A stretch of 62,303 nt of DNA, filler included. It is 5 parts of 5 records of this genome, joined end to end, with 100 filler letters (N's around TTAATTAATTAA, not from the genome) between each part and the next. Parts side by side here need not be neighbours in the genome. Positions count along the whole stretch, not along the records: positions 32,293 to 40,144 come from SRR31156797_3253; 4 more parts are not named here. One strand, written 5' to 3'. The position numbers were made by a program, and so were the translations under genes. Below, piece by piece: positions 3,024-41,764 of this stretch (positions are counted from its first letter, which is position 1; each line of letters opens with the position of its first letter). Under the pieces are notes generated by a model. The model ran no database searches and had not been told where the DNA came from. It saw only the letters and a program-made list of their open reading frames with translations.

Positions 3024-4175
3024 TTAAATAAACTTATTAGATTTATTTCTAAAGCTACTTGGTAAATATTGAGAAGCTATTCTATTTTCTGGATTTTTAT
3101 CAAAGAGATATAAAACTATCAGAAATATATATTCAAGTGGCTTCATCAAAATATATGTAAAATTAGCTCTGTTTTCCGTAGTTATTATATTGGATAGTGG
3201 ATAGCCATATTTATCATAGTTTGAACGAATTACTTTATGAAGCCTTGGCGATTTCTCTTGAATCAGCTCTTCGAAAGCATTTGCGATCATTAACTGCCGA
3301 TTAATTACAATTTTATTTCCTCGCCTAAGTCCATATCGTAGAGGTTTTACTAGTTTTTTATTACCACGTAGAGAAACAGTACAGAGATAATGTGCATGAG
3401 TTTCAATAGGTGGTGGTGATATCTGTTGTGATAAAGTCCAGTCACTTGTTTGGGTAAAAGCTTCTATTAGACTATCAGGTCTTTGTCCAAAGAGGATTAG
3501 TATAATAGTTATCAGAGCATAAAGTGGGAATAGCAGTATAAAGGAAACTCTAACATAGCCTTTACTCTTTAGAAGAGTTAAATTTAAAAATTTTAAGAGT
3601 TTATTATTATATACTCTTTCCTGCGCTATATAGCTTTCTATTATCTCTTTTATCTTTAGAGTTGATAAAAAGATGAAGTTTAATGGAAACAGGATTAGTA
3701 ATAGAGATTCAATATAAACTGTAAATTTCCCAAACTCATCAAAAAACAAATTTTTTCCGATTTGAATAATAAAAATTGCTCCAACTAAATTAGCAAAAAC
3801 CAAAGCACTCAATGATAAGCATAGAGCTAATGGTGCAAGCTTCTTAAACTTAAATCTCAGTAATATATATGCAAAACAACCGATTATAAAAAAAATAACA
3901 GGTGTCCACAAATGCTCAGCGCTTAATGGAGCATGAAAACTCGCAATATCAATGTTGATTTGTATAGCTTCATAATATTCCTTAAAATCCATAGCAATCC
4001 AAAAGATTCCACTAAATATTATACCCAATACAATGGTAATGATGTCTATATATTTAGATTTCGTAAAATTGCTTATCTTTTTAGAATCTGTAAATGCCTC
4101 AATAAATGTTGCTAGATTAATTAGTGATAGAACAGCTGGTACTCCAAGAAAAAACAGTAATGCTAATACGCCCAT
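3024..4175 (-). CDS. Conserved membrane protein (DUF6688-like)
   Basis: Several TM segments followed by conserved 'HYLCTV...NRQL..ANAFE...YDKYGYP' block. Confidence 0.65.
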   Translation of the reverse strand: MGVLALLFFLGVPAVLSLINLATFIEAFTDSKKISNFTKSKYIDIITIVLGIIFSGIFWIAMDFKEYYEAIQINIDIASFHAPLSAEHLWTPVIFFIIGCFAYILLRFKFKKLAPLALCLSLSALVFANLVGAIFIIQIGKNLFFDEFGKFTVYIESLLLILFPLNFIFLSTLKIKEIIESYIAQERVYNNKLLKFLNLTLLKSKGYVRVSFILLFPLYALITIILILFGQRPDSLIEAFTQTSDWTLSQQISPPPIETHAHYLCTVSLRGNKKLVKPLRYGLRRGNKIVINRQLMIANAFEELIQEKSPRLHKVIRSNYDKYGYPLSNIITTENRANFTYILMKPLEYIFLIVLYLFDKNPENRIASQYLPSSFRNKSNKFI

Positions 4176-12969: not shown

Positions 12970-13069
12970 NNNNNNNNNNNNNNNNNNNNNNNNNNNNNNN
13001 NNNNNNNNNNNNNTTAATTAATTAANNNNNNNNNNNNNNNNNNNNNNNNNNNNNNNNNNNNNNNNNNNN
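12970..13069. other. Artificial contig linker
   Basis: N-run + TTAATTAATTAA + N-run; base composition changes across it. Confidence 0.98.
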
Positions 13070-24906: not shown

Positions 24907-25006
24907 NNNNNNNNNNNNNNNNNNNNNNNNNNNNNNNNNNNNNNNNNNNNTTAATTAATTAANNNNNNNNNNNNNNNNNNNNNNNNNNNNNNNNNNNNNN
25001 NNNNNN
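24907..25006. other. Artificial contig linker
   Basis: N-run + TTAATTAATTAA + N-run. Confidence 0.98.
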
Positions 25007-32192: not shown

Positions 32193-32292
32193 NNNNNNNN
32201 NNNNNNNNNNNNNNNNNNNNNNNNNNNNNNNNNNNNTTAATTAATTAANNNNNNNNNNNNNNNNNNNNNNNNNNNNNNNNNNNNNNNNNNNN
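32193..32292. other. Artificial contig linker
   Basis: N-run + TTAATTAATTAA + N-run. Confidence 0.98.
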
Positions 32293-32316
32293 GAGCCGCC
32301 GAGGCCTCGGCGGCTC
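32293..32316. repeat. GC-rich perfect palindrome (REP-like)
   Basis: GAGCCGCCGAGG/CCTCGGCGGCTC at contig edge. Confidence 0.5.
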
Positions 32317-32428
32317 TACGGTGTTTGGGTTTTTATAACAATTTATTTGCAGAATTTCGCCAGGGGTATATAGTGCTTGAAACGGACTTGGGTTGTATTG
32401 AGAACGTCTTTATAACGGAGTCATTGGA

Positions 32429-32752
32429 ATGGGAAAGAAAGCAGCGGAAAAACGATCGGAAGAAAGATGCTGGATTGAACCTTCGGATACGGGGCATCTT
32501 CTCGAGGCCGTCATCAACGGCAGGGAATACCGGTTCAAGGTGCTGAATGTTTGCCGGGGGGGCATTGGCATGCTTGTCAAGGCGTCCCAGGATGAGGTCC
32601 TGGCAACCCTGCAAAAAGGGATGGTGATGAAGATGAACTACATTAACCCCAAAGGCAGCCTGGAGATCAAGGTTGAGATGCGCCATGGCACACGCTTTAA
32701 GAACGGTCCCTATGAAGGGGATTATTGTGTGGGTTTTTCCATGTCCATCTAA
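32429..32752 (+). CDS. Stand-alone PilZ-domain protein
   Basis: RxxxR (RSEER) and N-x-C-x-x-G variant of the D/NxSxxG motif. Confidence 0.65.
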   Translation: MGKKAAEKRSEERCWIEPSDTGHLLEAVINGREYRFKVLNVCRGGIGMLVKASQDEVLATLQKGMVMKMNYINPKGSLEIKVEMRHGTRFKNGPYEGDYCVGFSMSI

Positions 32753-32805
32753 TTGCCGCCGGAAAAATTATTTTACTATATCAAGCCCCGGCCTGGATTC
32801 CCTGG

Positions 32806-33669
32806 TCATGCCCCGAGCAGGATCATGACGGAGCCGAGGAACATCATAACGGCCCCCGTCATGCGCATCCTGATGTTTTTTTCATCGAAGATAACCCCGC
32901 CGTAGATCACACTGAACAGGATGCTGAGCCTTTTTATGGAGATCATATACGCTGCCTTTGCAAGGGAGATGGAAAGGCAGTGGAAGAGGGCATGGAAAAA
33001 CATGGCCCCGCCAATGAGAAGGCCCTTGAACTTGTATCTCATAAGGTTTTCCACGCTTATTTTTTTCATGAGCAGGAGAAGGAAAAACATCACCAGGTTG
33101 AACACCATGAAAAAGGTGACGGAAAAATAGACGGCGGAGGAATGGAGAATGCCCACTTTGCCGATGACGGCGGCAAAGCTGAATATAAAGGACACCAGCA
33201 GCATGATCATGGAGCCTTTTTCACGGAAAACCGCACGAATGGGGGAGAGCAGGGTGAATTTACCCAGATCCAGGTTCAGCACATAACCGCCCATGCAGAT
33301 CATCGCGATTCCGGTCACCCCCTGGATGCCCGGCACCTCCCCCAGAAACGCAAACCCCGTGAAAATCATGAAAACAGGGGTAAAGGCAAGGTAGGGGATG
33401 GTGAGGGAAAGGGGGGAGACCTTGATGGCTTTCATGTAAAGGATGAAGGCGATGCCGTTGATGGGCAGGCTGACCAGAAAGCTCAGATAGAACAGGAAAT
33501 CAAGGGGCGGGCTGTCAATGAGCAGGTATACGGGCAGGAAAAAGGGGACGCTGTATGCCATGGGAAAGACCGCCATCTCATAATGGGAGAGATGGGAAAA
33601 GAATTTCTTGGCAAAGGCGTCGTTCAAGGAGGCAAAAAATGCCGTTAGCAGGGCAAGTATAAACCACAT
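32806..33669 (-). CDS. EamA/DMT family transporter
   Basis: About 10 TM segments; 'SPLSLTIPYLAFTPVF', 'YMISIKR'. Confidence 0.85.
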   Translation of the reverse strand: MWFILALLTAFFASLNDAFAKKFFSHLSHYEMAVFPMAYSVPFFLPVYLLIDSPPLDFLFYLSFLVSLPINGIAFILYMKAIKVSPLSLTIPYLAFTPVFMIFTGFAFLGEVPGIQGVTGIAMICMGGYVLNLDLGKFTLLSPIRAVFREKGSMIMLLVSFIFSFAAVIGKVGILHSSAVYFSVTFFMVFNLVMFFLLLLMKKISVENLMRYKFKGLLIGGAMFFHALFHCLSISLAKAAYMISIKRLSILFSVIYGGVIFDEKNIRMRMTGAVMMFLGSVMILLGA

Positions 33670-33846
33670 GGATCTGTTTTATATCAACCGGATAAAAAAA
33701 TCCATTTATAGTGCTTCCGGGTATGGTCATGGGGGTGAACCGTCCCCGGAAAGGGCCCCGGCACGGTTCATCCTTGTTTTCGATAAATACCTGTGTTAAC
33801 TGTATCGTTCGTTAATGGGGTTCATATAATAAAGGACTTTTAGTTC

Positions 33847-34989
33847 ATGGGTATTTTAAAATTTTCAGTTCCGGAAATTTTTTTTGGGCTTGGCAGCCTG
33901 AAATATACCGGAATGTGCGCCAGGCGTCTCGGGGCCGAAAAAATATTTTTTGTCTCTGATCCGGGCCTGGAAAAATCCGGATGGATCGATCATGTGTTTG
34001 AGATCCTTGACAAGGAACGTCTCAAGTGGGTTTACTATTCCGATATCTCTCCCAATCCCCGGGACTGGCAGATAGAAAAAGGCGCTCTTCTATACAAAAA
34101 GCATGGATGTGATGTGGTTATGACCCTGGGCGGGGGAAGTCCCATGGATGCCGCCAAGGGCATCGCCCTTGTGGCCAGCAACGGCGGCCGCGTCAATGAT
34201 TACGAGGGGGCAAACCGCATTCAGCTGCCCCTGCCCCCCATGATTTTCATTCCGTCAACGGCGAGCAGCGGGTCTGACATTTCCCAGTTCGCCATTATCA
34301 CGGACATGGAACGCCAGGTGAAGATGTCCATCATCAGCCGGACCCTGATGCCGAATATATCCATTGTCGATCCCACCCTTCTGACCACAAAATCCCGGGA
34401 ACTAATCATTGAAGCCGCCGTGGACGCGCTTTCCCATGCGGTTGAGGCCCATGTGTCACGGATTGCCTCTCCCATGACCGAGGTGCATTCCCTGAAGGCC
34501 ATTGAGCTTATCGTGAAAAATTTGCCCCTGGCCCTGGAGAACCGATCACTGGAGAACCTGGAAAAGCTGAGCATGGCGGGAACCTCCGCGGCAATGGCAT
34601 TCAGCAACGCGAGCCTGGGCCTGGACCATGCCCTTGCCCATTCCCTTGGCGGCATGCTGGATGCGGTCCACGGCACCATTCATCCCATTCTGCTTCCCCA
34701 GGTGATGCGGTACAATCTTTGTGAATGCACGGATAAAATCGCCCAGATCGGGGAGGTGGTCCTGGGAAGATCCCTTGCCACCCCCCGGGAAACAGCCCTT
34801 GCGTGCATCGAACAGCTCGAGGGGTATTTCCAGAGCCTTGGTGTGGCCACCCGGTTGCGGGACATCGTGCCGGACCGGTCTGCATTGCCCCAGATCTGCA
34901 AAATGGCCACCTATGATTCCTGCCTGTTGAGCAATCCAAGAACGGCAACGGCCGAAGATATGATGCAAATCTGCGAAGGGGTGTGGTGA
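33847..34989 (+). CDS. Iron-containing alcohol dehydrogenase-like protein (ErcA-like)
   Basis: GGGSPMD, 'DALSHAVE', 'HALAH', 'HG' metal ligands. Confidence 0.85.
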   Translation: MGILKFSVPEIFFGLGSLKYTGMCARRLGAEKIFFVSDPGLEKSGWIDHVFEILDKERLKWVYYSDISPNPRDWQIEKGALLYKKHGCDVVMTLGGGSPMDAAKGIALVASNGGRVNDYEGANRIQLPLPPMIFIPSTASSGSDISQFAIITDMERQVKMSIISRTLMPNISIVDPTLLTTKSRELIIEAAVDALSHAVEAHVSRIASPMTEVHSLKAIELIVKNLPLALENRSLENLEKLSMAGTSAAMAFSNASLGLDHALAHSLGGMLDAVHGTIHPILLPQVMRYNLCECTDKIAQIGEVVLGRSLATPRETALACIEQLEGYFQSLGVATRLRDIVPDRSALPQICKMATYDSCLLSNPRTATAEDMMQICEGVW

Positions 34990-36206
34990 TGAACAAGCCG
35001 ACAACCCTGGATGATATCGTTGGGCTTGAATATACCAAGCTGGGTTTTTTCGGTGAGGTGAAAAATAAGGTGGCCGAACTCCAGGCGACCAACCTCAAGC
35101 TCGAGCGCAAGCAGCGCCAGCTCCAGGCGGTTCTGGACGGTATCTCCGATGTGATGGCCCTGATTTCATTGAATTTCACCATTGTGTCCGTGAACAACCT
35201 GTTTTTGGAAACCTTCAATTGTGAGAATCCCGAAGGCCGGTTGTGCTATGAGATCTTCTGCAACAGGACCGGCCCCTGTCCGGAATGCCCGGTCATAAAC
35301 GCCCAGAAGACCGCCAGGGTTTGCCGTCAGCTGATCGTCTACCAGATAGACGACAAAAACCATCAGTTTGAAGTCACGGTCTCCCCCATGCTGGACTCCA
35401 ATAAAAAGATATTCCGGTTTCTGCTTCTCATGCGGGACGTGACCCGGGAAAAGGAGTACCAGGAAAAATATAACTATTCGAGTAAAATGGCCACCGTGGG
35501 CGTCCTTGCCGCCGGTGTGGCCCATGAGATAAACAACCCCCTGACCGCCATCGGCGGATTCACCGAAGGGCTCAGGCGCCGGATGCCGAGGCTTGAGAAC
35601 AGCCTGGAGGATAATCCGGAAAACCGGGAACTCCTGGAGGATTTCAATGAATATGTGGAAACCATCATTGCCGAGTGCAACCGTTGCCGGGATATTGTAA
35701 AGGGATTGCTCACCTTCAGTCCCCGGAAAAAAATTGATTTTTCACCCGTGAATCTGAAGGCGCTGGTCACGGATGTTCTCAAACTGTTGAGCAACCGCCT
35801 GAAGCATTATCCCCAATTGAAAATCGACCTTGAATTCGGCGCCGGCATTCCAAAGGTTCACGGCAATGCCGGTGAACTGAAGCAGGTGATACTCAACATC
35901 ATATGCAATGCCATGGATGCCGCTGAGAACAACGGCAGGGTGCATATCAGCACGGAAAAAGAGGGCTCCTGGGTCGTGCTTGCGGTCCGGGACAACGGCT
36001 GCGGCATTGCCCCGGAAATCATGGACCGACTCTTTGATCCGTTTTTTACCACCAAGCCCGTTGACAAGGGAACCGGCATCGGCCTGTCCATCTGCTACAA
36101 TATCATCAAACAGCACAACGGAGAGATCACCGTGGACAGCAAGGAAGACCAGGGCACCGTTTTCAAGATTAAATTTCCAAACCCGGAATGTGTGAAAAAT
36201 GACTGA
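34989..36206 (+). CDS. Cytoplasmic PAS sensor histidine kinase
   Basis: 'AHEINNPL', N box, 'DNGCGI', 'FDPFFTTK', 'GTGIGL'; no TM segment. Confidence 0.9.
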   Translation: MNKPTTLDDIVGLEYTKLGFFGEVKNKVAELQATNLKLERKQRQLQAVLDGISDVMALISLNFTIVSVNNLFLETFNCENPEGRLCYEIFCNRTGPCPECPVINAQKTARVCRQLIVYQIDDKNHQFEVTVSPMLDSNKKIFRFLLLMRDVTREKEYQEKYNYSSKMATVGVLAAGVAHEINNPLTAIGGFTEGLRRRMPRLENSLEDNPENRELLEDFNEYVETIIAECNRCRDIVKGLLTFSPRKKIDFSPVNLKALVTDVLKLLSNRLKHYPQLKIDLEFGAGIPKVHGNAGELKQVILNIICNAMDAAENNGRVHISTEKEGSWVVLAVRDNGCGIAPEIMDRLFDPFFTTKPVDKGTGIGLSICYNIIKQHNGEITVDSKEDQGTVFKIKFPNPECVKND

Positions 36207-37557
36207 ACAATCAAGCACGATCAATATACTTGTGGTGGACGATGAGAAATCGATCCGCAGGCTACTTGAAAAGGAATTGAGCTCTCCCCGGCGGAGCATC
36301 ACAACGGCCGGTAATGCCAGGGAAGCCCTTGCCGCCATCCGCCAGGATGTGTTTGACGTCATCATCCTGGATATCAGCCTTCCCGACGCCAACGGCATCG
36401 AGCTCATGTCCCGATTCCAGGAGGAGATCCTGGCGGTCCAGGTCATTTTGATCACCGGGTACGGGGATGTGGACGATGCGGTGGAGGCCATGAAAACCGG
36501 TGCCTGCGATTATATCACCAAGCCCTTTGACCTGGAGCGTATCGAACAGGTTGTTGAAAAGGCCTATCAACGGGGAAGCCTGCAGAAGGAAAAGTTTCTG
36601 AAAAACCAAGGGGGACGGACAAAGAAGCATTACCCTGAAGAGATCGTGGGCCATTCCGCAGCCATGGAGGAGATCCGGTTCCTGATCGGCAAGGTCGCCC
36701 CCACTTCGGTACCCGTGCTCATCACCGGGGAGAGCGGCAGCGGTAAGAATGTGGTGGCAAGACAGCTCCACGGCCTGAGCCTGCGGAGTGACAAAACCAT
36801 GATAACGAAAAACTGCGCCACCCTCCAGGAGGAGTTGATGCGCAGCGAGCTGTTCGGTTATCACAAGGGCGCCTTTACCGGGGCCGAGGAATCCAGGAAC
36901 GGACTCCTTGCCCTTGCGGACCAGGGCACCCTGTTCCTGGACGAGGTGGGCGAGCTCTCCGTGGGGGTTCAGGCCTCCCTGCTCCGGGTCATGGAGAACC
37001 AGACATTCCGCCCGGTGGGGGACAAGAATGAGATAAAGGTGGATATCCGGTTTATCTTCGCCACCAACCGGGACCTGAAGGAAGAGGTGGCCCAGGGACG
37101 GTTCAGTGAAGCCCTTTTTCACCGGCTCAACGTGTTCTCCATAAAAATTCTTCCCCTGCGCAAACGAAAGGAGGAGATCCCGGTGCTTGTGGAATACTTC
37201 CTGGGAAAGATGAGTACCGGCACAACCCCCCACACGGTTTCAAAGGGCGCCATGGAACGGATCATGGCCTATGACTGGCCCGGCAATGTCCGGGAACTTC
37301 ACAATGTCATGGAACGGGGCGTCATCCTTGCCGATAACAATGTGATCACCGAACGCTGCCTGCCCCTTGAACTCCTTGAGAAAGCGGATGGTACGGACGG
37401 TGCGCACCCGCCGTTGTTTCCCACCCTCGAGGAGCTGGAAAAAGACTATACCCTCAAGGTGCTCAAGCATGTGGACGGGAACCGGTCAAAAGCTGCGGAA
37501 ATACTCGGTATCAGCCGGAAAACCCTGTACCGCAAATTGCTGGAAGACGGGGAATAG
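36199..37557 (+). CDS. Sigma54-dependent response regulator (NtrC family)
   Basis: REC domain, GESGSGK, GAFTGA, 'WPGNVREL', Fis HTH. Confidence 0.93.
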   Translation: MTEQSSTINILVVDDEKSIRRLLEKELSSPRRSITTAGNAREALAAIRQDVFDVIILDISLPDANGIELMSRFQEEILAVQVILITGYGDVDDAVEAMKTGACDYITKPFDLERIEQVVEKAYQRGSLQKEKFLKNQGGRTKKHYPEEIVGHSAAMEEIRFLIGKVAPTSVPVLITGESGSGKNVVARQLHGLSLRSDKTMITKNCATLQEELMRSELFGYHKGAFTGAEESRNGLLALADQGTLFLDEVGELSVGVQASLLRVMENQTFRPVGDKNEIKVDIRFIFATNRDLKEEVAQGRFSEALFHRLNVFSIKILPLRKRKEEIPVLVEYFLGKMSTGTTPHTVSKGAMERIMAYDWPGNVRELHNVMERGVILADNNVITERCLPLELLEKADGTDGAHPPLFPTLEELEKDYTLKVLKHVDGNRSKAAEILGISRKTLYRKLLEDGE

Positions 37558-37847
37558 GGTGGCCGGGCCGCCTGGAGAAGCGCATTCCTCCCCTGCATCC
37601 AAGGCGGTGTGTGTCAAGCAAGTTGTCACCTGAACCTGAAAAAAGATAAAAGGGGGTGTCATCCCAGATATCGTCGGCTTTTTTTTAAAACCAGCAGGGC
37701 CGCTGCTTCCACCAGGGCTTTTTCTTTACGGGACAAGTCCTTTTTTAAGCCCGCGACCTCTTTCTTTAACCGACGGAATAAAAGACACCCGCCATCCCGT
37801 AGTATTGGGACAGCGGGCGTAAATGTTTAAATGCTGGAATTGGGATA

Positions 37848-38432
37848 CTATCTTTCTGGCCTCATCTTTCTTCTGAACATAAATGCAAAACCGGCCAGCC
37901 CGAAGCCAAGGAGGAGGTAGGTCGACGGTTCCGGAATCACATTTACATTACGGCAGGAAGTGATGTCCTCACTCCCTGCCAGGAAGTAGATCAAGCCTTC
38001 GTTCAAGTCCTGCAGGTCGGATGCAATGCAGAGTTCTGACCGCCCGAGGCGGAGCGCGGTAAAATTCAGCGTCGCCAGATGGATATCGTAATCGGTGATA
38101 CCGGGAAAGGCCGAGCCGGCAACGTCCGTATCGGGAAACAGTGCCGAATCATCGTTGAAAAGAGCTCCCACCGTTGCAGAGTCAAAGCGAACGATGGAAG
38201 GGGCGGGGTTGGTGACATCAAATCCAAAAGCCAGAACTTCGTCTAATGGCGGGGTATCAAAGACGCCGTTCGCCCATACTTCGATATTGAACCTTTCACC
38301 TGGGGTTATAAAGCTGTCCGAAACCATGAGGTTTATGGTCAGGGCGGACACATGTGCCGCGCTCAGACCAAAAATGAGCATCATCCATACCGGTATTAAT
38401 TTTATTTTTCTGCTCAATCGGTTACCTTTCAT
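37848..38432 (-). CDS. Cohesin-like domain protein with PEP-CTERM sorting signal
   Basis: Signal peptide; 'PGERFNIEV', 'AFGFDV', 'LATLNFTA...G.S.L' cohesin pattern; IPEPST + TM + RRK. Confidence 0.8.
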   Translation of the reverse strand: MKGNRLSRKIKLIPVWMMLIFGLSAAHVSALTINLMVSDSFITPGERFNIEVWANGVFDTPPLDEVLAFGFDVTNPAPSIVRFDSATVGALFNDDSALFPDTDVAGSAFPGITDYDIHLATLNFTALRLGRSELCIASDLQDLNEGLIYFLAGSEDITSCRNVNVIPEPSTYLLLGFGLAGFAFMFRRKMRPER

Positions 38433-38462
38433 TTGAAATTTCTCCTTTGATTGTTGAAAAAA

Positions 38463-40144
38463 TTACTGGTTTTTGTATAACCCGTACCACATCCGGTAAT
38501 CGGCATAGGTGATACGGCCGTCGCCGTCATAGTCCGCCAATGGCGTGTAACCATTATGTCCGCCCCTCTTGCCGAGGAGTGCTCTGAATATCCTGTAGTC
38601 GTTGATATTGATGAGATTATTGCCATCCAGATCTCCTTGCCTTTCGGCGGCCGGAAGAACGTAGATGATGCTCAATTCCGAGTAATCCACCGTCGCGTCG
38701 TCGGCAATGACCAGATTGAATTCGCCGTCATAGAGAAGCGACAGGAGATTGCGATATTCGTCCGGATCGGTCGGCCAATGGCCGCCCGGACCGGGATCTC
38801 CGCTGACGCGAACCGGGACCTTGCTTAAATCCATCTCCACCTCGTGGACCTCTCCGATTTGCGGCTCTTTCCCGAGAAGATCCCTCAGGAGGATCAGCGG
38901 ATAGAACTGTTGGGGATCGCAAGGCGGCCGGGTCGGCGGATCTTGCAGGCATGCCGGGTCTGTCTCGCTTGGAGAAACCGATTCGTCATACATAATGACA
39001 TCATTATATACCAGAGTGCTTTGCCCTTTTATGCGGATCGTCAGCTTGGCCGACATGATCAGCGCCTGCTCCGGCAGATAAAAAAAATGGGTCAGGCCCA
39101 CAGGCCTGTCGAAGCCGCCTTCATCCAGGTCGACCCCGGGATTTTGGCCAACGATATCTCCCACACGATCTATGTAGTCAAGTATTTCCTTGATTCGATG
39201 TGACTTGGGTGCGGCATCGGCGGGATCCCCGGGATGGATATTGTCCTTATCTCCCACCAGGGTTGTGAGTGGCGGCGGCAGAGCGTTGAGGACCTTACAA
39301 AAGCCGTTTGATTCAGAGGGGCCCAGATAAGGATTCCCATCGTCACAATCTTTTTCAGCAAAAGCGGCAGAGGGGCAGGTGGGCGGTTTGATAGCGGAGA
39401 TTCCCCAATTGTAAAATCCGTCCCCATCGTTATCGACGCAACTGATATCATAGGGGGTGGCGCTCGTCACAGGATTCATCAATGCGTGGGTCCAGTTTAT
39501 GTTGCTGATGGGCGTTTTGACATACCCGTACCCATGCTCTCCCCAGCCTTCGCCCCAGCTGTTTTTAAATATCCATACGGTCTGCCCGTCGTCCGGATCC
39601 GTATCATACCCAACCAGGGTCATTGCATGGCGCCAGCTGGATATCCCGCCGCTGACAGCGCCATAGTCAATGATCATATTCTTTAATTTCTCTTCCGTTT
39701 TGGGAGATGAAAATGTCACTTTTCCATTGATCTTGATTAACTCACTGGGAACGGAACATTTATTACTGCAATCCTCATCGGTGTGGGTATATGGAAAGCA
39801 ATTTTCATCGACAATGCCGGTGTTGGTGACATAATTCAACGTCAGCCCCGGCCACCCTCCGGCGCAGCTTCCGGCGCCACTGCAGGAGAGAGCATCCTGT
39901 TCAGCCAGATTTAAATCAAGATGATCGTTGAAATAAAGATTGGTCAATGCTTCCGTTGCACCCGTAGCGGCAAAGGCCCAGCAGCTTCCGCACTGGGCCT
40001 GATCTTTAACTGAAGTGATCCATCCGCTGCCGTAAGGATCGCTATCGTAATAGGGCGTGGCGGGGCTGTTGGCGCCATGCCGGTTTCTCCAGTCAAAGGA
40101 GTTGATCAGGGAGGAGCTTTCGGTGGGGGAGGGCAGGGGGGGGG
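38463..40144 (-). CDS. Papain-family (C1) cysteine peptidase with C-terminal dockerin-like domain (5' end cut by contig end)
   Basis: Frame is open upstream of the ORF call: FDWR...VKDQAQCGSCWAF (Cys codon 39981-39983); 'HAMTLVGY', 'KNSWG'; DNDGDG/DCDD motif; GDLDGN...ADYDGDGRI repeat. Confidence 0.88.
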
Positions 40145-40244
40145 NNNNNNNNNNNNNNNNNNNNNNNNNNNNNNNNNNNNNNNNNNNNTTAATTAATTAA
40201 NNNNNNNNNNNNNNNNNNNNNNNNNNNNNNNNNNNNNNNNNNNN
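40145..40244. other. Artificial contig linker
   Basis: N-run + TTAATTAATTAA + N-run. Confidence 0.98.
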
Positions 40245-40245
40245 T

Positions 40246-40321
40246 GGAGGTATAGCAAAGTTGGTAATGCCCGGGATTGCAAATCCTGTATGCGTCGGTT
40301 CGAGTCCGGCTACCTCCTCCA
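40246..40321 (+). tRNA. tRNA-Cys(GCA)
   Basis: Acceptor GGAGGTA/TACCTCC, anticodon loop TTGCAAA, T-loop TTCGAGT, U discriminator and CCA. Confidence 0.95.
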
Positions 40322-40434
40322 CTTTTTAATCTAATACAAATCAATAAAATCCAAAAAACCCCTTTATATAAATACTTTGAAAGCTTTTTTATGCTATGTT
40401 AGTCTAAGTTAATTTAACAAAATCTAATTTTTTA

Positions 40435-40498
40435 TGTGGGGTTAAATACTACTTTACCCCACAACAAATAAATAAAAATAGATTTACCCCACAACAAA
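40435..40498. repeat. Integrase arm-type sites (left)
   Basis: TTTACCCCACAACAAA at 40453 and 40483, inverted TGTGGGGT at 40435. Confidence 0.7.
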
Positions 40499-40507
40499 AG
40501 GTAAAAT

Positions 40508-41764
40508 ATGCCTAAATTAGTGAAGCCTTTATCTGTTAGAGAAATTGAAGAAGCTAAGCCAAAAGATAAGAAATACTCTTTAAGTGATGGACAAGGCTTA
40601 TATTTAATAGTAAAAACAAACGGTACAAAATCGTGGATGTTTAGATATTCTTATAACTCTAAAAGAAAAGAGACTACTTTTAAAAACTATCCTTTAATAT
40701 CTTTAAAAGATGCAAGAGATAAAAGAGATAAATTTTTGAAGTTAATAGATAATGGCATTGACCCTATTACATATAACAATGAAGAAAAACTAAAAAAGAA
40801 AATTGAAGAAAACAATACATTTAAAAAAGTTATGTACGAATGGTTAGAACTTGAAAAACCAAGAGCAAGTCTTAATCAATATGAATGGAAAAGAAATAGG
40901 TTTGAAAAAGATGTATTACCTCATCTAAATGAAAAACCTATGAATAAGATAACTGTACAAGATATAACAAAAGTAATAGGAATTAAAAATAAGACTGCAC
41001 CTGAAACTGCTTCAAAATTGTTTGGTTATCTAAAAGCATTATGGGGCTATGCAATGATGAATGGATATTGTGAAAGAAATCTACTAATAGAAATGAATAA
41101 ATCCTTACTTATTACAAAACAAACAGTTAAACATATGCCAAAGATTACCGACAAAGAAATATTTAAAGAACTTGTAAACTCTATTTATAGTTATCACGGT
41201 GGATTTAGTGTAAAAAATGCTTTGAAAGTTGTATTACATTTACCATTAAGAGCAGAAAATTTATGTACTATGAAATGGAGTGAAATAGATTTTGATAAAA
41301 AGCTTCTAACTATTCCAAGAGAAAAGATGAAATTAAAAAACATAAATATAAGTGACTTTAAAATACCCCTTACTAATGAGGTTATATCTATACTTAAAGA
41401 ACAAAAGGAAGAACTACAAAACTATACAAATGAATTGGATTATGTTTTTTTAGGTGCAAATAATAAAGACCATATAAACAAAGAAAGTCCAAATAAAGCT
41501 TTACAACTAATGAGTTTTAATGATGAAAGAAAAGGAAGAAAAATAAGACTTCACGGTTTTAGAGGTACATTTAGAAGTATGATAGATACTTTAGATACTG
41601 AAAATAGATTTTCTTTTGAAACAAAAGAGAGAGCCTTAGACCATCACGAAAAAAGCAAAGTAGTAAGAGCATATTCTCATAAAGGTGATTATTTAGAACA
41701 ATTAAGAGAATTAATGAACTTTTGGAGCGATTATATTATGAGTTTGAAAGATGAGGTGAAATGA
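40508..41764 (+). CDS. P4-like tyrosine integrase
   Basis: Arm domain 'DGQGLYL.V...GTKSW.FRY'; catalytic R (LRAE), HGFR, 'LDH', 'RAY'. Confidence 0.92.
   Translation: MPKLVKPLSVREIEEAKPKDKKYSLSDGQGLYLIVKTNGTKSWMFRYSYNSKRKETTFKNYPLISLKDARDKRDKFLKLIDNGIDPITYNNEEKLKKKIEENNTFKKVMYEWLELEKPRASLNQYEWKRNRFEKDVLPHLNEKPMNKITVQDITKVIGIKNKTAPETASKLFGYLKALWGYAMMNGYCERNLLIEMNKSLLITKQTVKHMPKITDKEIFKELVNSIYSYHGGFSVKNALKVVLHLPLRAENLCTMKWSEIDFDKKLLTIPREKMKLKNINISDFKIPLTNEVISILKEQKEELQNYTNELDYVFLGANNKDHINKESPNKALQLMSFNDERKGRKIRLHGFRGTFRSMIDTLDTENRFSFETKERALDHHEKSKVVRAYSHKGDYLEQLRELMNFWSDYIMSLKDEVK

Follow-up and report, generated by a model that had tools for sequence, protein, structure and literature searches.

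A candidate two-gene cassette for displaying dockerin-tailed proteins at the bacterial surface by means of a cohesin-fold PEP-CTERM partner

The window analysed here, a stretch of DNA of 62,303 bases, carries on its minus strand two adjacent genes that probably form a unit for the non-covalent display of a dockerin-bearing cargo protein, at the cell surface or in the surrounding matrix, by a cohesin-PEP-CTERM protein. The first gene encodes a papain-family (C1) cysteine protease (P0001) that ends in a dockerin; the second encodes a small protein of 194 amino acids (P0002) composed of a signal peptide, one domain of predicted cohesin fold and a PEP-CTERM sorting signal. In the mechanism that we favor, the secreted protease would present its C-terminal dockerin of ~58 residues, with two EF-hand-like calcium loops and their helices, as a plug, and the single cohesin-fold domain of the small Sec-exported protein would be the socket. 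Exosortase, we infer, would act on the PEP-CTERM signal that follows this domain, processing the small protein and sorting it to the cell envelope or to the exopolysaccharide matrix. There the cohesin would bind, presumably in a calcium-dependent manner, the dockerin of the neighboring gene’s product, and the protease would thereby be kept at the cell rather than diffusing off. Several observations made in this analysis recommend the scheme. The domains could be identified and their folds predicted, the two genes are laid out like an operon, the pair recurs with unrelated cargo, and exosortase co-occurs with it.

The protease gene (38463..40144, minus strand; 559 codons) is truncated at its 5' side: its stop codon is at 38463-38465 and the open frame continues to the contig end at 40144. 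The product matches Pfam Peptidase_C1 (PF00112) with 123.1 bits against a cut-off of 20.7 (E 2.3e-35), and the catalytic domain spans residues 40-205 (39528..40025, minus strand), with Peptidase_C1 covering residues 40-168 and Peptidase_C1_2 residues 166-205. The active-site set is complete, comprising Gln48, Cys54 in the motif QCGSCWAF (residues 50-57, positions 39972-39995), His172 in RHAMTLVGYD and Asn194 in KNSWG; the cysteine and histidine are presumably the catalytic dyad, with the glutamine as the oxyanion residue and the asparagine as the orienting residue. The nearest full-length relatives are P0042 (811 amino acids, 62% identity) and P0043 (808 amino acids, 56% identity), the alignments spanning 98-99% of the protein. 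Both begin with a signal-peptide-like segment, followed by ~270 residues ahead of the catalytic domain. Because the frame leaves the contig end and these full-length relatives have 808-811 residues, it appears that ~250 N-terminal codons of the gene are missing, those for the signal peptide among them. Between the catalytic domain and the dockerin lie ~300 residues (~206-502; 38637-39527) that have no Pfam match and are conserved in both P0042 and P0043.

The last 57 residues of the protease (503-559; 38466..38636, minus strand) constitute the dockerin module. It has two 12-residue calcium loops, DLDGNNLININD and DYDGDGRITYAD, each with D, N or T at positions 1, 3, 5, 9 and 12 and each followed by a helix, and its C-terminus reads YRMWYGLYKNQ. 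Searched as part of the whole protein, Pfam Dockerin_1 (PF00404) scores 21.4 bits, slightly below its cut-off of 22.9; the module by itself reaches 27.2 bits. The same profile matches 25 of 30 aligned tails of the family at E ≤ 0.01, and the best match of the tail profile among the PDB sequences is 2y3n_B, a dockerin solved in complex with a cohesin (E 1.9e-9). The structural model of the tail (mean confidence, pLDDT, 92.2) has helices at 19-28 and 52-64, and in a Foldseek search its first 22 matches are all dockerins, with TM-scores of up to 0.72 and root-mean-square deviations of 1.5-2.7 Å; the E-values are weak (0.025 or above), being limited by the shortness of the domain. Across the 30 sequences of the family the tail is ~58 residues long, with the consensus GDLDGDGDVDxxDYxxFRSxLGKCxGDxGFxxxADYDGDGCITYADYRIWYGYY, conservation being much stronger in its second loop-helix than in its first. 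A pair of cysteines occurs in most members; the copy studied here, like both copies of the lectin locus L013 described below, lacks cysteine at both positions. Two close relatives of the protease, P0043 and P0048 (959 amino acids), carry another, more canonical dockerin (...DLNGDxxVNIxDxRxLV...); the same enzyme has therefore been fitted with alternative dockerins in other lineages.

The gene of the small protein (37848..38432, minus strand) is separated from that of the protease by a spacer of only 30 nucleotides (nt; 38433..38462, minus strand), in which a Shine-Dalgarno-like AAGGAG precedes the start. Following its stop codon by 28 nt is a terminator-like hairpin (37785..37820, minus strand), a 14-pair stem and then the CTTTTATT T-run, with which the two-gene unit probably ends at its 3' side. 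The short spacer, the ribosome-binding site and the terminator after the second gene all fit co-transcription. The N-terminus of the protein is a typical hydrophobic leader whose last residues are HVSA. At the other end, residues 166-194 (37851..37937, minus strand) form a PEP-CTERM signal consisting of IPEPST, a hydrophobic helix and the basic cluster RRKMRPER; this C-terminus, IPEPSTYLLLGFGLAGFAFMFRRKMRPER, matches PF07589 with 32.5 bits (cut-off 20.7) and TIGR02595 with 24.1 bits (cut-off 16). None of the full-length PEP-CTERM families in NCBIfam matches the protein, all the matches being to the tail only and far below the cut-offs.

The nature of the domain between leader and tail is apparent from predicted structure only. 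No Pfam family matches residues 1-165, even at E ≤ 1, and hence Cohesin (PF00963) does not either; this profile touches just one of 32 family members (E 0.0088). When the family profile was compared with the PDB sequences, the sole match was 5lxv_A, the cohesin of Ruminococcus ScaC (Scaffoldin C), at a weak E of 0.42, and a profile of the domain alone retrieved nothing relevant from the same sequences. With a silent Pfam and such a lone, weak PDB hit, membership of the cohesins on sequence grounds had to be rejected. The AlphaFold2 model of the domain (residues 30-165; 37938..38345, minus strand), based on a 40-sequence alignment, is a nine-stranded beta-sandwich with a mean pLDDT of 91.5 and a predicted TM-score (pTM) of 0.79. 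Foldseek found 95 matches to it in the PDB at E ≤ 0.001; the top ones are cohesins (2vo8, E 8.2e-7, TM-score 0.76 on the target), and cohesins rank above every other beta-sandwich. Among the matches are both single-cohesin anchoring proteins (OlpA, OlpC) and non-cellulosomal cohesins, from Clostridium perfringens and Archaeoglobus fulgidus. By its predicted structure, then, the small protein is a cohesin, though not one recognizable by sequence.

These results agree largely with a first-pass annotation of the letters. It had proposed a C1 protease with an intact QCGSCWAF/H/NSWG active site, and both the Pfam match and the residues in the translation confirm this; the duplicated calcium-binding repeat that it placed at ~38466-38636 is indeed a dockerin according to the profile of the module alone, the PDB profile match and the model; and the secreted 194-residue protein with its own ribosome-binding site, 30 nt downstream and ending in IPEPST, a transmembrane helix and RRK, holds up in the sequence and the PEP-CTERM profiles. 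Its suggestion of one cohesin-like beta-sandwich is upheld by the predicted fold but not by the Pfam Cohesin profile. It overlooked two things, the missing 5' part of the protease gene and the make-up of the window from five contigs.

Within the family of the small protein, conservation is unevenly distributed. It is highest in strand 5 (VAGSAFP, 0.89), strand 3 (LAFGFD, 0.83) and strand 6 (0.77), and is also marked in the 4-5 loop (DDS...TD, 0.72) and in the NEGL that opens strand 8; strands 1, 2, 4, 7 and 9 have values of 0.36-0.59. The sheet formed by strands 8-3-6-5 is the one that we take to be the dockerin-binding face of cohesins, as in complexes such as 1OHZ. The sorting motif itself varies among the members (PEP, VPIP, VPLP, TEP), the cohesin-like domain being retained. 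A HMMER search of 1.84 billion cluster representatives with the domain profile gave 771 proteins at E ≤ 1e-3, 426 at ≤ 1e-10 and 74 at ≤ 1e-30, each standing for a cluster at 50% identity, and nearly all of the best 150 of the 771 have 180-210 residues and a single matched stretch. Judging from these searches, the family is sizeable, uniform and single-domain; its annotation goes no further than “PEP-CTERM protein”. A longer variant of ~380 residues occurs at locus L023 (3254-4396) and also at L024, where an extra N-terminal domain of ~215 residues precedes the cohesin-like domain and the PEP-CTERM tail; at L023 the gene before it encodes a purple-acid-phosphatase-like protein with a dockerin at its end. 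The nearest clusters in the ESM Atlas, which score at most 0.87 and serve as leads only, include two of ~200-236 residues in which Pfam Cohesin is found on 11-20% of the members and, in one of them, PEP-CTERM on 26%. The architecture is therefore visible in the databases, even if it may not have been discussed.

If dockerin and cohesin-like protein function together, the two genes should be found side by side elsewhere, an expectation already voiced in the first-pass annotation. A profile search for the cohesin-like domain yielded 38 loci, two from species-representative genomes and 36 from metagenomes, and all six frames of each were scanned with hidden Markov models of the dockerin tails (A2, 30 sequences) and of the cohesin-like domains (A3, 32 sequences). 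The expectation is amply borne out, as 35 of the 38 loci have, immediately before the cohesin-like gene and on the same strand, an open reading frame (ORF) that ends in a dockerin. The exceptions are L018 and L026, in which the upstream DNA amounts to just 126 and 23 nt, and L034, where 1,096 nt of upstream DNA contain no dockerin. Because several loci are duplicates or near-duplicates of each other (L008/L009, L011/L012, L029/L030, L032/L033, L023/L024, L014/L019, L021/L026 and L027/L038), the number of independent loci is ~30.

The reverse search, with a degenerate DNA motif for the last helix of the dockerin, found five genomic loci, one of them being the contig of L002. In two of the four newly found loci an intact cohesin-like gene follows the dockerin, in one the gene is frameshifted, and in one, from a Nitrospirota metagenome-assembled genome (MAG), there is none. 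The intact cases come from a Methylomonas MAG and from the cultured Methylobacter psychrophilus Z-0021 (L041; hhalign probability 99.6%). The frameshifted gene, at ~1944-2313 on the minus strand of L043 (from a delta-proteobacterial MAG), comes after the dockerin gene and has its cohesin-like coding sequence spread across three frames; either it is a pseudogene or indel errors in long reads are to blame. Furthermore, a full-length orthologue of the protease in a Gammaproteobacteria MAG has a 203-residue member of the small-protein family 210 nt downstream (hhalign probability 99.9%).

The proteins encoded upstream have nothing in common except the dockerin tail. In Pfam terms they include peptidases (Peptidase_C25 in L003, L008 and L022; Peptidase_M64 in L011; Peptidase_M23 in L014), a legume lectin (L013), LTD with Exo_endo_phos (L037, L040 and L041), a purple acid phosphatase/Metallophos protein (L023), RCC1 with Lipase_3 (L032) and cadherin/Big_9/He_PIG repeats (L031); the remainder have PKD/TSP3 repeats, DUF7619, DUF4785_3rd or nothing recognizable. 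These domain lists are partial, many of the ORFs ending at contig ends, and the cargo of the related loci, partial ORFs included, showed no glycoside hydrolase. The dockerin-cohesin pair is thus the conserved core of the arrangement and the cargo is interchangeable. The fact that many of the cargos are proteases or other hydrolases raises the possibility of a chaperone or inhibitor role in the periplasm for the small protein, which would hold the enzyme inactive until its export. However, lectins and adhesin-like repeats offer nothing to inhibit, the conserved element specific to the partner is the dockerin and not the catalytic domain, and the small protein bears a signal of its own for leaving the inner membrane. 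We judge such a role, chiefly because of the lectin and adhesin-like cargo, to be very improbable.

The same data bear on a different interpretation, namely that the two genes are co-regulated neighbors whose products never bind: the dockerin-like module would be a calcium-dependent stabilizing or polysaccharide-binding tail, and the small protein would be a matrix (floc) protein in its own right, its beta-sandwich a generic one. The missing Pfam Cohesin match of the small protein is in keeping with this. So is the match, a weak one, of the family member at L040 (1844-2413, minus strand) to NCBIfam floc_PepA over residues 68-185 (27.1 bits, cut-off 80; E 3.2e-6). The same match hints that PepA-type floc proteins may share the cohesin-like fold. 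Moreover, non-cellulosomal dockerins of unknown function are common: the passages retrieved from PMC5244752, on ANME archaea, state that the function of non-cellulosomal cohesins and dockerins is unknown, and those from PMC10066038 describe a giant Omnitrophota ORF with nine non-cellulosomal dockerins; both cite Peer et al. 2009. Against the notion of non-binding neighbors, the sole constants across unrelated cargo are a dockerin and a cohesin-fold gene, adjacent in nearly every locus, and the fold of the latter resembles cohesins before any other beta-sandwich. The two modules also diverge together (Mantel r 0.563 between their identity matrices over 28 pairs, with none of 5000 permutations as high; the same nearest neighbor in 14 of the 28), though co-inheritance alone could suffice. 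Since adjacent genes share ancestry anyway, we rejected this co-divergence as a demonstration of co-evolution. On balance, we give little credence to neighbors that do not interact and retain the reading in which the cohesin-PEP-CTERM protein displays the dockerin cargo.

To see the arrangement at the level of whole genomes, we examined seven related genomes that were reached via the loci; having been chosen for carrying the cassette, they reveal its architecture and not its frequency. They contain eight dockerins of the present subtype, one or two per genome, and seven cohesin-like domains, and all seven of the cohesin-like genes adjoin a dockerin gene. A generic Dockerin_1 search in two of them found one dockerin each, the cassette’s own in G001 and, in G002, a second one on another contig. 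An exosortase (PF09721, above cut-off) is present in six of the seven, the exception being G002, a partial MAG of 1.5 Mb; this is in line with the exosortase-sorted display inferred in the first-pass annotation. In the window itself, no exosortase was found among the 29 ORFs scanned.

The first-pass annotation had gone further and proposed a two-gene cassette in which an exosortase-sorted “mini-scaffoldin” captures not only the protease but possibly other dockerin enzymes of the genome as well. The modules, folds and adjacency favor the cassette, but the wider capture finds no support in eight dockerins and seven cohesin-like genes in seven genomes, each of the seven beside its dockerin gene. 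This one-to-one arrangement therefore counts against the small protein gathering other dockerin enzymes and, together with the single cohesin-fold domain per protein, it led us to reject a multi-enzyme scaffoldin for the genomes and family members covered. Nor is the arrangement a cellulosome. Neither a multi-cohesin scaffoldin nor a carbohydrate-binding module nor a glycoside hydrolase cargo, the hallmarks of a cellulosome, was seen in the related loci and genomes or among the best 150 of the 771 family representatives. The pairs are mostly one-to-one. The only case seen with two cargo genes per cohesin is L013, in which two tandem legume-lectin genes with nearly identical Cys-less dockerins (923-1099 and 3699-3875) are followed by one cohesin-like PEP-CTERM gene; it is the sole sign of cohesin sharing, and perhaps no more than a hint of it. 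The Methylomonas MAG G003 has two cassettes (L040 and L044) between which both the dockerin and the cohesin-like protein have diverged; in the second, the dockerin is more canonical and lacks the aromatic last helix, and the cohesin-like gene has an E of 5e-11, versus 2e-31 for the first. These two cassettes constitute a natural set of cognate and non-cognate partners.

Such a strict one-to-one adjacency, with a dedicated carrier for each cargo, would also be expected if the small protein were a piggy-back sorting adaptor rather than an anchor. The cohesin-PEP-CTERM protein would then bind the dockerin cargo while still in the periplasm and bring it along the exosortase route to the cell surface or the exopolysaccharide matrix, and the dockerin would be, in effect, a sorting signal that acts in trans. 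The cargo proteins have no sorting tail of their own apart from the dockerin. It is perhaps relevant that many homologous C1 proteases, from Bacteroidota, carry at their C-terminus the covalent sorting domain of the type IX secretion system (T9SS), PF18962, so that the same position in the protein is used for sorting. Nevertheless, the present observations fit transport and retention alike. Sorting in trans, the bolder variant, accords with the one-to-one rule equally well; we consider it unlikely, as we do the piggy-back adaptor in general, and prefer retention of the dockerin cargo by its cohesin-PEP-CTERM neighbor.

The docking of cohesins and dockerins is the assembly principle of the cellulosomes of Gram-positive bacteria, in which SLH repeats (as in OlpA and OlpC) or an LPXTG motif and sortase (as in ScaE) hold the cohesin to the wall. 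Outside cellulosomes, the cohesin and dockerin modules of C. perfringens and A. fulgidus sit inside large enzymes and join enzymes together. The closest functional parallels to the small protein are the single-cohesin anchoring proteins, the SLH-anchored OlpA and OlpC of C. thermocellum (3ul4, 4dh2) and the sortase-anchored ScaE of Ruminococcus flavefaciens (2zf9). The differences from these are several: the anchor here is the PEP-CTERM/exosortase signal of double-membraned bacteria, the sequence has diverged too far for Pfam Cohesin, the partner is encoded next door with one per cohesin, and the cargo consists of proteases, phosphatases and lectins and not of plant cell-wall enzymes. The non-cellulosomal pairs, namely the glycoside hydrolase and toxin complexes of C. 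perfringens (2vo8, 2w1n and 2ozn, NagJ-NagH) and the A. fulgidus cohesin (2xdh), differ in that the present cohesin is a stand-alone protein with a membrane-sorting tail.

With the known PEP-CTERM/exosortase substrates (TIGR02595; for example the Zoogloea flocculation protein PepA, NF033554) the small protein shares the signal peptide, the PEP motif, the transmembrane helix and the basic cluster. Known PEP-CTERM proteins, however, are described as being the sorted cargo, whereas the role of the sorted protein in the present pair seems to be that of an adaptor for another protein that has no tag. The C1 proteases of Bacteroidota, which belong to the same catalytic family, likewise bear a C-terminal module for surface sorting, the T9SS domain; it is attached covalently and recognized by the T9SS, whereas the dockerin would act via a separate protein. 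In the openly licensed literature of PubMed Central and bioRxiv (subscription journals lying outside this search), we found no paper linking cohesins or dockerins with PEP-CTERM, and in that same literature cohesin or dockerin occurs together with exosortase solely in PMC5244752, where the passages retrieved list the domains separately. Within the literature covered, the proposed cohesin-dockerin anchoring through PEP-CTERM and exosortase would be a novel form.

Some remarks on the setting of the gene pair are in order. The window is composed of five pieces split by four artificial contig-joining spacers of the form N44-TTAATTAATTAA-N44, at 12970-13069, 24907-25006, 32193-32292 and 40145-40244. 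The G+C contents of the pieces are, in order, 0.30, 0.48, 0.41, 0.53 and 0.28, a spread that points to a draft or binned assembly, perhaps of mixed organisms; because these compositions differ so much, a common organism for neighboring pieces cannot be assumed. The pair lies wholly within the fourth piece (32293-40144; 7,852 bp, G+C 0.53) and, since both genes and the spacer between them are inside this one contig, their association as an assembly artefact is ruled out. It is the last of the joining spacers, at 40145-40244, that interrupts the protease gene at its 5' side. The low-G+C piece on the other side of it starts with a tRNA-Cys (40246-40321); next come the gene of a tyrosine integrase that has an Arm DNA-binding domain (40508-41761) and small AT-rich ORFs. 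To judge from its gene content, 40246-41761 looks like a mobile element integrated at a tRNA gene. Adjoining the gene pair, and convergent with it, are a PAS histidine kinase and a sigma-54-dependent response regulator (34983-37557). A kinase and regulator of the same types are likewise found upstream of the cassette at L001 (2-2769), from a Deltaproteobacteria MAG, and may be dedicated regulators of the cassette.

What emerges is a plug-and-socket pair joined to the PEP-CTERM/exosortase system of double-membraned bacteria, as a compact two-gene cassette whose interchangeable cargo ranges from proteases, phosphatases or nucleases and a lipase to lectins and adhesin-like repeats. The cassette points to a little-known means by which such bacteria may keep secreted proteins attached. 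If the binding is true, many non-cellulosomal dockerins would gain a concrete function, and one class of PEP-CTERM proteins would be adaptors, which bears on what exosortase substrates do; the pair would also be a natural, small, calcium-switchable display module for Gram-negative hosts. Should sorting in trans prove true as well, adaptors would make up a whole class of exosortase “substrates”, and double-membraned bacteria would possess a modular piggy-back route for export and display. The presence of the cassette in a cultured carrier, Methylobacter psychrophilus, makes the display idea directly testable.

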